This document shows, in pieces, positions 6,895 through 62,717 of a stretch of DNA of 64,000 nucleotides. The stretch lies in the IMG/VR virus record IMGVR_UViG_3300006204_000007, positions 1 through 64,000 of that record; one strand, written 5' to 3'. A program made the translations under genes and the position numbers. The DNA comes from a virus (Duplodnaviria; Caudoviricetes). The notes under the pieces are model-generated. The model ran no database searches. It saw only the letters and a list, made by a program, of their open reading frames with translations, and was not told the origin of the DNA. Every line of letters starts with the position of its first letter. Within the stretch, counting starts at the first letter, position 1.

Positions 6895-6900
6895 TCCCTC

Positions 6901-7080
6901 CTAATAATCATCTTCCCGCGATACTTCTGATAAAACTCGATGCATTCCCGGAAATCCTTTCCCTAAATGGACGTAAAGCCCGCCAATCTCAAGAGGAATA
7001 AAACAGGTAATCGTCTTACCTCTTTTTCCCCGGCTCCCATCCGGGTACTCTCTGACGACTTTGTATGTATACACCGCCAT
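6901..7080 (-). CDS. Small hypothetical protein (59 aa)
   Basis: Hand-translated MAVYTYKVVREYPDG...; RBS GGAGG. Confidence 0.55.
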   Translation of the reverse strand: MAVYTYKVVREYPDGSRGKRGKTITCFIPLEIGGLYVHLGKGFPGMHRVLSEVSREDDY

Positions 7081-7084
7081 TCCA

Positions 7085-7246
7085 TCACCTCCCCGCTGTA
7101 CCCATGAAGTAGATAATCATGTACAACGCGATAAATCCTAATATCATCGCCACCATGCTAGCGGCAAAGTAGCAAATGAATTTAAACCGCTCGAAGCTCA
7201 TAGGATCCCGGTGGTTCCTGCCGCTCCTTAAAATAATCTCGTCCAT
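7085..7246 (-). CDS. Small single-TM protein (53 aa), homolog of 62015-62167
   Basis: MDEIILRSG...MSFERFKFICYFAASMVAMILGFIALYMIIYF closely matches the prophage B copy. Confidence 0.8.
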   Translation of the reverse strand: MDEIILRSGRNHRDPMSFERFKFICYFAASMVAMILGFIALYMIIYFMGTAGR

Positions 7247-7263
7247 GTTTTCCTCCTGTTCTC

Positions 7264-7365
7264 TTGCCGGTACAGGAAGAATATGTTACAATCTACCTGT
7301 AGCCAGTAAGTGTGGTTTATTGGTTACTGCCCTGTTCGGTATGTCGGTACTGAATGGGGCGTTTT
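7264..7365 (+). ncRNA. Candidate antisense sRNA: sigmaA promoter, 11-bp hairpin, intrinsic terminator
   Basis: TTGCCG-17-TACAAT (7264-7292); stem GTAGCCAGTAA/TTATTGGTTAC with loop GTGTGGT; 13-bp terminator plus T-run; structural homolog at 62183-62290. Confidence 0.6.
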
Positions 7366-7367
7366 AA

Positions 7368-7502
7368 TTAGACATACTCGCGCCAGTGCTCCGCAAAGTA
7401 GCTTGTCACACCATACTTAGTGTGAATGTCCTTCTTGAAAGGCTTATGGATTCCTGCCTTTCTCATGTTGGTCTTTGCGACCATTCTTTTAAGCTTTCTC
7501 AT
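7368..7502 (-). CDS. Small basic protein (44 aa)
   Basis: AGGAGG RBS before MRKLKRMVAK... Confidence 0.6.
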   Translation of the reverse strand: MRKLKRMVAKTNMRKAGIHKPFKKDIHTKYGVTSYFAEHWREYV

Positions 7503-7521
7503 GATGCTTGTCCTCCTTATA

Positions 7522-7550
7522 TTGAATTTGTTTTCCTTATCTCCTATACT
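7522..7550 (+). promoter_or_regulatory. sigmaA-type promoter antisense to the early operon, conserved in both prophages
   Basis: TTGAAT-17-TATACT followed by GTAAGTACCAGACT; same block at 62446-62488. Confidence 0.7.
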
Positions 7551-7586
7551 GTAAGTACCAGACTCCACCAAGAAGAGTACATAGGG

Positions 7587-7988
7587 CTAACGCCCCTTTC
7601 TGTAAAAATGATGTAGAAGAAAATCCGCCTTGTGCTCTTTTGCGCTTACAGAATTTAATATGATTGAGCAAAACTCCTTTTCCCTATCACTGCATCCTTG
7701 ATAAAAATTATCAATCTGCTTCTGCAAATCCATTTTTCTTCTAAGCCATTCCGGGAAGTATGCGTACAAAGAAACGACTATAGGATTCGTAAAATCACGC
7801 TTACATGCTTTCTGCCAAAAATGATTTTTTTCTAACGGAAGTTTATCGAATCCTTTCGGCTTCTCCCCTAATAGTGCATTCCATTCTCCTCGCAATGCAC
7901 TCCAATAGATTTCGTGAAGTTCTTCAACGGTAAAATTTTTTAGAACAACTAAATTGTTTTGAGATACATTTACTTCTATTTCCCTCAC
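7587..7988 (-). CDS. Hypothetical early protein
   Basis: 133-aa ORF in the early operon. Confidence 0.55.
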   Translation of the reverse strand: MREIEVNVSQNNLVVLKNFTVEELHEIYWSALRGEWNALLGEKPKGFDKLPLEKNHFWQKACKRDFTNPIVVSLYAYFPEWLRRKMDLQKQIDNFYQGCSDREKEFCSIILNSVSAKEHKADFLLHHFYRKGR

Positions 7989-8021
7989 CTCCTTGTTTGA
8001 CTAAACTTTTCTTTCAAAATC

Positions 8022-8406
8022 TTGTAGAAAACTACATAATGTGTTACAATTTTTACATGCCATTAGGCAATGAAAGGAGCGTGGTCTAATTGACCAAACT
8101 TTTGAGCTTGCCTGCTCTCTTCTTATAAGGTCGCAATACTGGAACCAAAGCAGTATAAACTGGTCAAATGCAGCAACTGATACGGCGATGCGTATGCGCG
8201 GTCGGCAACCTATAATGTCCCACCGTATCAAGTACTCCTTGTAAAGCGTCAGCAATTAGGCATGTTGCGGAACCAAAACCGCGAAAGTGACAAAGTACTT
8301 CACAGAATCATCTGGGGCTATCAGATGAGGTGAAAACCTGCAGAGTACATAGAGTAAACAATTTTGGTAAAGAACTGTTGGAAATAGTCCTTTCAGCAGT
8401 TTCTTT
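8022..8406 (+). ncRNA. Candidate ~350-nt non-coding transcription unit
   Basis: TTGTAG-17-TACAAT promoter (8022-8050), terminator hairpin about 8369-8406, only a 12-codon ORF (TTG 8090) behind an AAAGGAG RBS. Confidence 0.45.
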
Positions 8407-8418
8407 ATACTGCATAAG

Positions 8419-8643
8419 TTAAATATTTTGAACTTTCATAGAAAAAAAATATTCCTGTATATCATTTCCAGAAAGCCCAAGCAGTTCAATCGCAGAGCAA
8501 ATGTCTGTCTGTTTCCAAGGAATTTTCCCATTCATTTTACAGGAAAGAGTACGGTCAGACCAACTCATAGCCTTTGCAAACTCTGTCTGGCTACCATATT
8601 TTTCCACTATTTTTCCCCTTAGCTTACTAAAATCAAAAGCCAT
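8419..8643 (-). CDS. Cro-like repressor (DUF739-like)
   Basis: MAFDFSKLRGKIVEKYGSQTEFAKAM...; divergent from CI. Confidence 0.88.
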   Translation of the reverse strand: MAFDFSKLRGKIVEKYGSQTEFAKAMSWSDRTLSCKMNGKIPWKQTDICSAIELLGLSGNDIQEYFFSMKVQNI

Positions 8644-8659
8644 GTATGAAACCTCCTTT

Positions 8660-8790
8660 CTAGTTAAAACTTTTGAACTACTTAAACTATATCACTATAA
8701 GCACGTATTGTCAATAATATAATTCAAACTTTTTAACTTTTCTTGTTTTGAGTATTGAACTTTTGTTCAAAATGTGATAATGTATGCTTT
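8660..8790. promoter_or_regulatory. Cro/CI divergent promoter-operator region of prophage A
   Basis: Repeated AACTTTT motifs, e.g. TTGAACTTTTGTTCAA, between divergent HTH genes. Confidence 0.6.
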
Positions 8791-8807: not shown

Positions 8808-9185
8808 ATGGAAAGAGTAAGCACGGCGGAAAGGCTTAGACAGATTATGGAAGAAAGAAACTTGAGACAGATTGATATATTAAATCTTGTGCTTCCGATA
8901 TGCGCCAAGTATGATGTCAAAATGAATAAGTCTGATATAAGCCAATATGTTTCTGGAAAAAACGAACCAAGCCAAGAAAAATTAGTTGTTCTCGGAATGG
9001 CTCTGAATGTTACAGAGTCTTGGCTTATGGGTTTTGATGTTGCAAAGGAAAGAAAGGAAACACCTGCACAGGCAGAAAAAGATTTTGACATTCTGTATAA
9101 ATTTTCTATGCTAAGTGATCGTGATAAAAAAATCGTGTCTGATATGATTGATTCTATGCTTTCAATGAAGGGGAATGGGGTTTAA
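8808..9185 (+). CDS. CI-like repressor (HTH, no peptidase domain)
   Basis: AERLRQIMEERNLRQIDIL...KSDISQYVSGKNEP. Confidence 0.85.
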   Translation: MERVSTAERLRQIMEERNLRQIDILNLVLPICAKYDVKMNKSDISQYVSGKNEPSQEKLVVLGMALNVTESWLMGFDVAKERKETPAQAEKDFDILYKFSMLSDRDKKIVSDMIDSMLSMKGNGV

Positions 9186-58147: not shown

Positions 58148-59043
58148 CTCCCAGAATTGTTTGAAAGTAACTGTTTTTCCAATTCCGTAAAGTCATACTC
58201 TCTTTGCGGAAAATCGCTAAAGCTGTTCTTTGGCCTTTTGGACACAGGATTTGTGTTAGTATAATTCTCATCCAGATAATCTACATAACCGCCATTAAAG
58301 AATGTGCCGCCGTTTTGGTACTGCAAATAATCAACGCTATCAACATATTTCTTATAGCGCTCTATTGCCCTTGACATTTCATCGTAGCCAATCTTGAGCA
58401 GCTGCATCTTCTTTGCATCAGATACCTGTCCTTTTCCTTTCTTAACTGGGTATAATTTCCATAGTTTTTCAAAAAGTGCCAAAGCGTCAGCTTTGCACAT
58501 ATTATTTTTATTATTTCCTTTACTTTCCTTTACTTTACTTTCCTTTATGTCATTTCCGCAGGATTTACTCTCATTTCCGCAGGATTTACTCTCATTTCCG
58601 CAGGATTTACTTGAATTTACGGTAACTTTAATATGGGAAGCAGTTTCTTTTGTGTTTAAAAGCCAGATTTCAGAATCAACATTCACATCCCGTTTCCGGC
58701 TTTTCACAGCTTCCTGGTACCGTTTCTGTATTCCCGGTGAAGTAATGGTAGCGCCCTCTGTATTCAGTGTTCTCTTTATGAGTAGTGACCTGGTACACAA
58801 GTATGCCAAAACTTGCTCTATAAACCCTTCCTTGAGACGAAGGTCTGTTGCGGCATCTTCTGCCGATTCCTCATCCCAACTTATGTAATATCCGTTACGG
58901 TAGATTTCTGTCAGCAGATAGATGTAAAATATTATTCCGTCATTTCCAAATTTAGCATGAAACCTCTTAATCCGCTTATCTGCGTAAAAAAAATCCGTGT
59001 CAAAAGGAAAGTAGAGTAATCCGTTTTGTTTCGGACGTGCCAT
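58144..59043 (-). CDS. Replication initiator (DUF4373/Lin1244-like N-terminus)
   Basis: MARP..GLLYFPFDTDFF; ITSPGIQKRY; FEKLWKLYPVKKGK; TFFNG. Confidence 0.85.
   Translation of the reverse strand: MARPKQNGLLYFPFDTDFFYADKRIKRFHAKFGNDGIIFYIYLLTEIYRNGYYISWDEESAEDAATDLRLKEGFIEQVLAYLCTRSLLIKRTLNTEGATITSPGIQKRYQEAVKSRKRDVNVDSEIWLLNTKETASHIKVTVNSSKSCGNESKSCGNESKSCGNDIKESKVKESKGNNKNNMCKADALALFEKLWKLYPVKKGKGQVSDAKKMQLLKIGYDEMSRAIERYKKYVDSVDYLQYQNGGTFFNGGYVDYLDENYTNTNPVSKRPKNSFSDFPQREYDFTELEKQLLSNNSGR
58551..58611. repeat. Three 21-bp direct repeats (probable iterons of the prophage B origin)
   Basis: CATTTCCGCAGGATTTACTCT x2 plus a 19-bp third copy, inside the initiator gene. Confidence 0.8.
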
Positions 59044-62014: not shown

Positions 62015-62167
62015 TTACCTCCCCGCAAAATAAATAATCATATAAAGGGCGATAAACCCCATCACCATTGCCACCATGCCCGCGGCAAAGTAGCAGATAA
62101 ATTTCAGCCGCTCAAAACTCATCGGCTCCCGGCCTTTCTTGCCGCTCCTTAAAATGATTTCTTCCAT
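62015..62167 (-). CDS. Small single-TM protein (50 aa), homolog of 7085-7246
   Basis: MEEIILRSG...MSFERLKFICYFAAGMVAM... Confidence 0.8.
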   Translation of the reverse strand: MEEIILRSGKKGREPMSFERLKFICYFAAGMVAMVMGFIALYMIIYFAGR

Positions 62168-62182
62168 ACTTTCCTCCTTATC

Positions 62183-62290
62183 TTGCGATTTCCAGAGGAA
62201 AATGATATAATTCTCTCTGTAATCGCATTAGTCTGGTTAATGTGGTTACAGTCCCGGTTGGTGTTGCCGCACCGCCGGGGCGTTTTTGTT
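62183..62290 (+). ncRNA. Candidate antisense sRNA (promoter, hairpin, terminator)
   Basis: TTGCGA-17-TATAAT; 13-bp stem TGTAATCGCATTA/TAATGTGGTTACA with loop GTCTGGT; GC-rich terminator plus T-run. Confidence 0.62.
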
Positions 62291-62429
62291 AGATAAACCT
62301 AAATTCTCCATCGCTGCGCATGTTTAGCGCGTCCACTATTTCTCTTGCCCACCCTTCCGTGTCGGCCTGTGCAATCATGTACCATATATCCGGGTCTAAT
62401 GTGCTTCTTTTTTGGATTTCATATTTCAT
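62289..62429 (-). CDS. Small protein (46 aa)
   Basis: Hand-translated MKYEIQKRSTLDPDIW... Confidence 0.55.
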   Translation of the reverse strand: MKYEIQKRSTLDPDIWYMIAQADTEGWAREIVDALNMRSDGEFRFI

Positions 62430-62525
62430 TTACATACCCCCTATATTGAATTTGATCCCCTTATCTCCTATACTGTAAGTACCAGACTGTCATCTGGAAT
62501 ACGAAAGAAAGGAGATAAAACACAT

Positions 62526-62717
62526 ATGACAAAATTTTGTCCATTCATGAGCAAAGACCCATCCATTCCAGATAAGTCAAGCACAGACAAAAATATGATT
62601 CCTTGTATGGATACCTGTTCTTTGTACTGGAAGGGATTCTGTTCAATTAACATCCTCGCCCAAAAAGCGATACATGACGGCGAAAAAGAAAAGAAGGACA
62701 AATCAGTCTCTGAATAA
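62526..62717 (+). CDS. Small Cys-containing protein transcribed against the early operon
   Basis: TTGAAT-17-TATACT promoter (62446-62474), AAAGGAG RBS, MTKFCPFM...C..C. Confidence 0.7.
   Translation: MTKFCPFMSKDPSIPDKSSTDKNMIPCMDTCSLYWKGFCSINILAQKAIHDGEKEKKDKSVSE

Follow-up and report, generated by a model that had tools for sequence, protein, structure and literature searches.

Among phages, antisense RNAs encoded inside operons have been described in a handful of Gram-negative models (P22 sar, lambda OOP), and to our knowledge almost nothing has been established about RNA-level control in the temperate phages of gut Clostridia. Here, we analysed 64,000 nucleotides (nt) of DNA (the window) from a 79-kb IMG/VR virus record (IMGVR_UViG_3300006204_000007), which hold two prophage early regions with an identical order of parts, referred to as copies A and B. 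In both, a promoter (P1), a hairpin and a terminator hairpin make up a conserved, structured, stand-alone small RNA (sRNA) gene; on the sequence comparisons given below, we consider this gene real and well supported. The family is so far undescribed and of a known general kind. As to its function, we see an even chance that the sRNA is a cis-antisense RNA of the sar/OOP type that would close the ribosome site of the next gene in the early operon.

The immI region of phage P22 (mnt, arc, sar, ant) has been summarised in PMC2629481. The sar gene has a promoter and a terminator of its own and lies backwards between two phage cistrons, as does the sRNA gene described here; its short RNA controls translation of the downstream cistron. 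However, sar covers the ribosome site of ant, whereas the RNA of copy A is predicted to begin ~50 nt away from where translation of the next gene starts (~7299 versus 7246), and the Shine-Dalgarno (SD) sequence of that gene (7252-7256) lies under the upstream region of P1, outside the predicted transcript. It is the sRNA promoter and not the RNA that overlies the ribosome site, and any effect would therefore have to be exerted through refolding or cleavage of the leader. Furthermore, the target gene of sar is an antirepressor, while the proteins encoded next to the sRNA (gene X) have no Pfam or PHROG match, and the locus has no known sequence kinship to sar and no Rfam match. Details of sar that go beyond the summary named above are general background.

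The OOP RNA of lambda is an antisense RNA with its own promoter within the early rightward operon; RNase III cuts its hybrid with the mRNA, its promoter contains a LexA site, and a link to the SOS response has been proposed (PMC5869508). A short antisense RNA inside an early operon is also predicted here, and in 13 relatives a LexA-type box abuts P1. OOP, however, has its overlap with the end of an upstream gene, the 3' end of cII, on which it acts, whereas our sRNA gene lies in a non-coding spacer next to a downstream ribosome site, and the copies of the window have neither a LexA-type box nor an overlap with upstream coding sequence. By analogy, the geometry appears closest to P22 sar and is also OOP-like, with membership in neither.

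In countertranscript attenuation, as known from the plasmids pT181, pIP501 and pAMbeta1, the antisense RNA binds the nascent leader and takes away one strand of an early helix, so that a later, inhibitory helix can form. The same logic is recognisable in our locus, where two helices of the leader are mutually exclusive and one arm, segment b, is the complement of the sRNA 5' end. The inhibitory helix of the plasmids is a terminator, whereas here an anti-SD:SD helix would take its place, and the mRNA strand has no U-tract after it; the gene under control is a plasmid replication gene there and a phage gene here.

The locus represents an unannotated RNA family with a testable design, in which the sRNA promoter overlaps, on the other strand, the very switch that the RNA is proposed to flip. 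If true, this would be a new way for gut prophages to silence or time early genes, would explain mosaic boundaries in these phages, and would provide compact, orthogonal RNA/leader pairs for engineering.

Structure and conservation of the small-RNA gene

Hairpin 1 of copy A spans 7299-7327. Its minimum free energy fold is a 12-bp stem with a 5-nt loop, UGUGG (7311-7315), which becomes an 11-bp stem with a 7-nt loop when the closing G-U pair is opened. The terminator hairpin follows directly (7328-7361) and runs into a U-tract at 7362-7365. The + strand RNAs of copies A and B fold into two adjacent hairpins with free energies of -34.5 and -36.6 kcal/mol (z = -6.5 and -6.0), while the reverse strands fold more weakly, with -14.8 and -23.6 kcal/mol, respectively. 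Upstream of the sRNA we found neither a + strand gene nor another source of a transcript; instead, the RNA has its own conserved promoter, 6-8 nt before the hairpin. An earlier sequence-only reading of this DNA had listed the features of both copies, and promoter scans, folds and open reading frames (ORFs) locate all of them where it had placed them. A coding function of the sRNA region was also considered and rejected: the only candidate is a 36-codon GTG frame, which has no ribosome site and is not kept in copy B.

Relatives were fetched with the conserved 53-amino acid (aa) gene X protein as query, which yielded 7 viral contigs, 23 genome loci and 35 metagenome loci. The genome loci belong to Lachnospiraceae, many of them from mouse-gut catalogues. 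Cultured lysogens with a copy include Lachnospiraceae bacterium JLR.KK009 (CP143549, locus L016) and Eubacterium sp. 14-2 (locus L018). At the same place, most relatives carry a promoter with a 17-nt spacer, a gap of 6-8 nt, a hairpin of 9-14 bp and a G+C-rich terminator hairpin, and the P1-type promoter with its fixed spacer and distance to the hairpin is present in nearly all copies. Covariation was evaluated on a structure-blind MAFFT alignment of 28 distinct copies, with alignments in which the 3' partners had been slid by 1-3 columns as controls. In the true register 79.5% of the cells were paired, compared to 40-47% in the slid controls; double changes were found in 78 cells versus 17-39, and the covariation score was 0.345 versus at most 0.155. 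G-U pairs outnumber A-C mismatches by 65:13 in hairpin 1 and by 68:9 in the terminator, in total 133 to 22, and the + strand RNA is therefore the strand selected to fold.

From this alignment we derived a covariance model (CM R1), which identified ~45 distinct copies in the collected loci, mostly from the mouse gut; they fall into three sequence groups and all have one orientation relative to the early genes. The sequence-only reading had inferred covarying stems with G-U pairs that work on the + strand only, and had suggested a covariance-model search of relatives and Rfam; both features are upheld across these copies. In Rfam 15, searched with both copies at E values up to 10, no family reached its gathering threshold, and nothing overlapped the sRNA of copy A or the leader behind the second promoter, P2. 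The best hits of copy B stayed far below threshold, with SymR at 22.9 versus 61 bits (E = 0.18) and Spot 42 at 18.3 versus 80 bits, and neither copy was matched among GenBank phages by distant blastn. Only three out of 151 sampled genomes from the host family of Lachnospiraceae bacterium JLR.KK009 gave a match to the model, and the element is therefore sporadic and prophage-borne.

In all copies, the 5' tail of the sRNA is pyrimidine-rich (UCCUG) and resembles an anti-SD sequence. As many prophage sRNAs act on host targets, this tail or the loop might serve to regulate host mRNAs or other phage genes in trans. However, the 64-kb window contains no further complement to hairpin 1 of at least 11 nt, and complementary 10-mers occur at chance level; moreover, loops and stems as unconserved as these fit a fixed host target poorly. 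We regard a trans-acting role as improbable.

The early-operon spacer and the leader of the next gene

The sRNA terminator ends 1-3 nt ahead of the stop codon of the upstream gene, with the end of the U-tract at 7365 and the stop codon at 7368-7370 in copy A, and at 62286 and 62289, respectively, in copy B. At the other end, the start codon of the next minus-strand gene is found 16-42 nt from the -35 box of P1 in all copies with an assignable start; the distance is 16-23 nt in two groups and 33-42 nt in the group with an inserted GAAC-N4-GTTC box. This spacing is kept irrespective of whether the next gene encodes the 50-53-aa membrane protein, as it does in two groups, or an unrelated protein of 42, 153 or 173 aa, as in the third group, where the membrane-protein gene is located ~1 kb further on. 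Hence, the sRNA gene fills the intercistronic spacer of the early operon. Promoter scans revealed no promoter-like site within the spacer that reads toward gene X, and expression of this downstream gene must therefore depend on a transcript that runs through the sRNA gene on the opposite strand. This early transcript is perfectly complementary to the sRNA, from the complement of the terminator through segment b.

The GAAC-N4-GTTC-like box, the consensus of which we take to be that of the LexA (Cheo) box of Gram-positive bacteria, is located 0-10 nt upstream of the P1 -35 box in 13 relatives of one sequence group (L007, L015, L016, L018, L019, L020, L035, L040, L041, L049, L066, L067 and L070) and is perfect in seven of them. 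It is absent near P1 in both copies of the window. By its sequence, the box suggests SOS control of the sRNA, or of the read-through, in that lineage. In the third group, the sRNA gene is found directly after replication genes, at 1626-1696 in L033 (DnaC-like loader) and at 1483-1543 in L028 (primase/VirE-like). In L033 the sRNA gene extends into the final codons of the loader gene, and there the antisense RNA would also cover the upstream coding end in an OOP-like manner.

The gene X proteins combine a conserved, polar N-terminus (MDEIILRSG..REPM) with a C-terminal helix, a hydrophobic stretch of ~27 residues. TisB/IstR-1, ZorO/OrzO and DinQ/AgrB are type I toxin-antitoxin systems with divergent antitoxin RNAs, and our locus resembles them in the small size and hydrophobicity of its protein, the sequestration of the ribosome site, the divergent orientation of an antisense sRNA gene, the prophage setting and, in some relatives, the LexA-type box. 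The membrane protein could accordingly be a toxin, held off by a structured leader together with the sRNA. Such a role would fit a small protein with a single hydrophobic helix, a ribosome site that is unusually sequestrable, and an antisense sRNA gene positioned directly upstream in divergent orientation. It would also fit the LexA-type box between gene and sRNA in the 13 relatives, as SOS-controlled type I systems carry such boxes in such positions, and the sub-threshold SymR resemblance of copy B points weakly the same way. In contrast to the known systems, no promoter was found for the putative toxin gene, which is an internal cistron of the early operon and directly followed by further early genes, and the sRNA module of the third group fronts unrelated, larger, soluble proteins of 153-173 aa. 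In addition, the conserved part of the protein is the polar N-terminus and not the helix, and no toxin family was matched. Taken together, we consider a type I toxin-antitoxin system quite unlikely.

An inverted repeat links the spacer and -35 box of P1 to the beginning of the sRNA. In minus-strand RNA, this repeat gives a hairpin of 12-16 bp between segments b and c, with the complement of the -10 box in the loop. The b:c fold of copy A comprises 16 bp and -15.9 kcal/mol on the minus strand, compared to -13.0 kcal/mol on the plus strand. The hairpin is present in all three groups with -9 to -20 kcal/mol, and the plus strand was weaker in 20 of 25 representatives. Transition mismatches in the repeat result in 42 minus-strand wobbles versus 7 plus-strand wobbles, the arms tolerate bulges, and the sequence of the repeat varies strongly from phage to phage. 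The cognate arms paired better than distant non-cognate ones in 34 of 35 loci (-16.1 versus -9.7 kcal/mol). The wobble bias, the tolerance of bulges and the stability of cognate arms argue that b:c functions as a helix of the early RNA and not as an operator for a protein.

Segment c overlaps a conserved UUCC-type stretch, c', which has the downstream gene's ribosome site as a potential partner, over 8-10 bp. The helices b:c and c':SD share 4-9 bases and are mutually exclusive in 38 of 39 loci. When the 57 SD-bearing genes of the window were compared for complementarity between SD and upstream sequence, gene X of copy A ranked first (-14.8 versus a mean of -7.2 kcal/mol) and that of copy B fourth. 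The mirror image of the sRNA hairpin is weak in the mRNA of copy A (-6.8 versus -12.4 kcal/mol), because the G-U pairs of the sRNA become A-C mismatches there; as modelled, the complement of the sRNA 3' arm and loop should be left single-stranded and free for docking.

The same arrangement could act at the level of DNA, with the RNA being incidental: the convergent P1 would hinder early transcription, the inverted repeats would be repressor operators, and the hairpins would merely stop the transcript. Consistent with this, P1 faces the early promoter and overlies the start region of the next gene, inverted repeats bracket both promoter boxes, and one group has its LexA-type box immediately next to the -35 box. 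The P22 promoters Psar and Pant, moreover, interact by convergent transcription. However, action on DNA leaves the compensated second, non-terminator hairpin with its + strand G-U excess unexplained; the repeat around the -10 box, with its bulges and minus-strand wobble bias, is RNA-like and unlike a protein operator; and the repeat sequences are too different among phages to fit easily. Outside P1, the half-site motif, for which we searched the window as a test for shared operators, occurs at chance level. We therefore judge a purely DNA-level function unlikely.

If the sRNA instead acts as a cis-antisense RNA on the early transcript, b:c would fold first in the nascent mRNA and leave the ribosome site open. 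The sRNA would then dock on the single-stranded complement of its own 3' arm and loop and zip through b, releasing c, upon which the c':SD helix would shut the ribosome site of the next gene. The ~70-bp sRNA:mRNA duplex may also be a substrate of RNase III. Transcription of the sRNA, its pairing with the mRNA and the direction of its effect, closure of the site, are the inferred parts of this scheme. The variable hairpin would give the RNA of each phage specificity for its own leader. Since the sRNA 5' arms of copies A and B differ for the most part, cross-talk between the two prophages, which the sequence-only reading had envisaged, seems unlikely by sequence. Because P1 points the same way as cI and int, the sRNA could serve the lysogen as a second lock that keeps the early gene shut; copies that carry the LexA-type box next to P1 may, by analogy, be tied to the SOS response instead. 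A more far-reaching proposal, which we put forward tentatively and with some doubt, is that the sRNA promoter DNA has a dual function, as promoter in one direction and as anti-SD arm of a two-state leader in the other. Combined with the variable hairpin, the module would then be a translational countertranscript attenuator that is portable and specific to each phage, and that Lachnospiraceae phages would position ahead of any early gene that has to be kept silent. Each phage would own a second lock on its lytic genes, which co-resident phages such as A and B could neither open nor close for one another, and one lineage would have wired it to the SOS response via the LexA box.

Several observations weigh against closure of the ribosome site by the sRNA. 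When the leaders were folded at equilibrium with the sRNA target blocked, SD accessibility decreased in 13 of 39 loci, increased in 5 and remained unchanged in 21, and in copies A and B the SD is predicted to be closed in both states, whether the sRNA is there or not. A switch would consequently have to be argued on kinetic, co-transcriptional grounds. No strand bias was seen for the anti-SD:SD helix (13:16), in which little covariation is possible because SD sequences are universal. RNAalifold returned no consensus structure for a mixed alignment of the mRNA-strand leaders, because the register of the helix differs from group to group; folds of single sequences, counts of wobbles and the energies of cognate versus non-cognate pairs were used in its place. 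Generally, the copies are phylogenetically related and the counts exceed the number of independent events, and the inverted repeats could double as protein operators on DNA. RNA libraries covering 6900-8000, two of them true (runs X6 and X7) and two doubtful, contain pieces of contigs of 3.6-6.4 kb from a relative with 90-95% identity; these contigs show neither strand, ends nor level and give no transcript support for the sRNA.

The P2 cassette and the proposed loop pairing

Both copies have a second + strand promoter, P2. It had been noticed as near-identical in the two prophages, and indeed a 50-nt block (62439-62488 in copy B) has 92% identity between them. In intact cassettes, the order of elements is TATACT or TATAAT, ~7 nt, a 5'-terminal hairpin, GAAUAC, a purine-rich ribosome site and the start codon. 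The hairpin of copy B pairs CCAGA (62482-62486) with UCUGG (62493-62497) around the loop CUGUCA, and is followed by GAAUAC and AAGGAG (62509-62514). A first type of leader has this stem with the loop C-Y-R-C/U-C-A, and a second type follows the same plan with stems GGCUC/GAGCC, GGCU/AGCC or GGCC/GGCC and then GAGUAC; given the different stems, the P2 hairpin covaries. Overall, 22 distinct leaders were found before ~15 different small proteins of 52-90 aa, all of them encoded opposite to the early genes and, apart from weak zinc-ribbon signals, without a known family. For the 63-aa protein of copy B no family was found; an identical protein is located behind P2 in L044 and L017.

Several phages have two or three such cassettes, with at most two in any one collected locus, and many cassettes are hundreds of bases away from the sRNA. 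Besides the one at 62446-62717 of the window, cassettes are present in L004, L011, L014, L015, L017, L019, L034, L040, L044, L053, L063, L066 and L070. In copy A, the 5' arm ACCAGAC is present, but the UCUGG arm, a ribosome site and an ORF are missing; in runs X6/X7, a close relative that shares the left flank runs on into an intact leader, and by this comparison the P2 of copy A is a truncated remnant. P2 is a separate module, consisting of a nearly invariant promoter and 5' untranslated region (UTR) for diverse small accessory genes read in the lysogenic direction. Its leader could be a 5' stabiliser or the binding site of a regulator. As the shared signal of many accessory genes, the cassette offers a handle for finding cargo expressed in lysogens.

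The sequence-only reading had combined sRNA and P2 into one switch, in which a kissing interaction between the sRNA loop and ACCAGACU, at the start of the P2 transcript, would control the variable gene in trans and could also operate between the prophages. Within the window the complementarity of ACCAGACT to the loop is confirmed: copy B matches at 8/8 positions, a central G-G mismatch leaves 7/8 in copy A, and the sRNA adjoins P2 in both copies and in eight further distinct relatives. Among the relatives, however, it is lost: the loops vary (UCUGG in copy B; UGUGG, AUG, GUGC, CUUACU, CUCGCU and UUUAAAG in the further neighbours), whereas ACCAGAC is nearly invariant, and the two do not covary. 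The longest contiguous complement to the loop is 2-4 nt in the eight further neighbours and 4 bases in copy A; the 8 bases of copy B are the only case above 4 among the ten. L014 has the same stem as copy B and differs in one base of the loop, so that the match in copy B is a single change away from a mismatched loop.

Furthermore, ACCAGAC is half of the P2 leader's own hairpin, because its partner UCUGG lies a few bases downstream in the P2 transcript; ACCAGA is thus already paired within its leader, in a hairpin that covaries as GGCUC/GAGCC. P2 also turns up several times per phage and at a distance from any sRNA, most copies of the sRNA lack a P2 in their vicinity, and the P2 of copy A has no gene to control. 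The comparison largely refutes the kissing interaction, to which we assign very little probability, and the ACCAGACT pairing of copy B is, judged by the relatives, a one-off that is not conserved. From the proposal of an RNA-based switch, control of early genes at the RNA level by a structured, phage-specific sRNA remains the most likely explanation, while the suggested target and the role of ACCAGACT were given up.

Two further parts of that proposal did not survive the comparison. The cassette is not built around a swappable minus-strand gene, as the slot is empty or taken by another gene in many relatives and P2 is often found elsewhere; the slot genes themselves are non-homologous, as had been claimed, with no similarity between the 44-aa protein of copy A and the 46-aa protein of copy B. 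The analogy to P1 c4 and P4 CI was abandoned as well. Like the P1/P7 c4 and P4 CI RNAs, the sRNA is a phage RNA proposed as a second layer of immunity. Those RNAs, however, arise by processing of the leader of their own target operon, whereas the sRNA has its own promoter, and their short, repeated target boxes covary with the RNA, whereas ACCAGACU does not covary with the loop.

Feature coordinates and other observations in the window

Table 1. Elements of the sRNA and P2 modules and neighbouring genes in the two early regions (A, B; window positions).
Feature	Copy	Position	Strand	Description	Basis
P1 promoter	A	7264..7292	+	TTGCCG-17-TACAAT, TG before	promoter scan
Predicted sRNA	A	7299..7366	+	~68 nt	fold, covariation, CM R1 77.2 bits
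P1 promoter	B	62183..62211	+	TTGCGA-17-TATAAT, TG before	promoter scan
Predicted sRNA	B	62218..62286	+	hairpin 1 62218-62250 (14 bp), terminator 62251-62281, U-tract	CM R1 62.5 bits
Gene X ribosome-binding region	A	7250..7259	-	mRNA ACAGGAGGAA; one arm of SD-closing helix (IR1)	
Segment c of early mRNA	A	7267-7276	-	encoded opposite P1 -35 box/spacer	
Anti-SD segment c'	A	7272-7281	-	mRNA UUCUUCCUGU; encoded opposite P1 -35 box/spacer	
Segment b of early mRNA	A	7296..7306	-	complement of sRNA 5' end; pairs with segment c	
Gene X	A	7085..7246	-	53-aa protein; first gene downstream of sRNA module in early-operon direction	ORF, aligned homologues
Gene X	B	62015..62167	-	50-aa membrane-protein homologue; 80% protein and 79% DNA identity to copy A	
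Slot gene	A	7368..7502	-	variable 44-aa basic protein; between sRNA terminator and P2; AAGGAGG ribosome site	
Slot gene	B	62289..62429	-	variable 46-aa acidic protein	
P2	A	7522..7585	+	TTGAAT-17-TATACT (7522-7550), truncated leader; GTAAGTACCAGACT at 7551-7564	
P2	B	62446..62525	+	complete 5' UTR; -10 box 62469-62474	
P2 cargo gene	B	62526..62717	+	Cys-rich 63-aa protein; transcribed opposite to early operon	

The early operon of copy A runs leftward, with a cI-like gene at 8808-9185 (+) and a cro-like gene at 8419-8643 (-). The cro-like gene is followed by a gene for a 133-aa protein (-), the slot gene, the spacer with the sRNA module, gene X and more minus-strand genes. Copy B has the same order, with different genes at the variable positions. 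The slot gene of copy A is also present in the relative L044 and in contigs of runs X1, X5, X6 and X7. No Pfam, PHROG or PADLOC family was found for the gene X proteins, and searches with the small proteins and the P2 cargo proteins against the same three collections gave only sub-threshold zinc-ribbon, Cas2-like (E = 0.011) and SLATT-like (E = 0.027) signals, none of which is usable.

A strong, full-length match to the RNA family FuFi-1 (RF02986) was found at 8238-8405 (+), with 130.8 bits versus a threshold of 59.6. It sits between the cro-like gene and the gene for the 133-aa protein of prophage A, backwards relative to the early operon. Only two GAAC-N4-GTTC boxes are present in the window, which is about chance level. 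A perfect box at 8757-8768 (+) lies within a 16-bp palindrome and overlaps the -35 region of a promoter-like site before the cI-like gene of prophage A, which encodes a repressor of 125 aa without a peptidase domain.

The early region of prophage B contains three tandem copies of a 21-nt unit (TCATTTCCGCAGGATTTACTC) at 58550-58621, which by their sequence look like the iterons of a replication origin. Finally, a 40-nt motif with TTGTACC...TTGTACCA occurs in five copies (13209, 24682, 36547, 46250 and 55537), at a spacing of ~10 kb and in both prophages.

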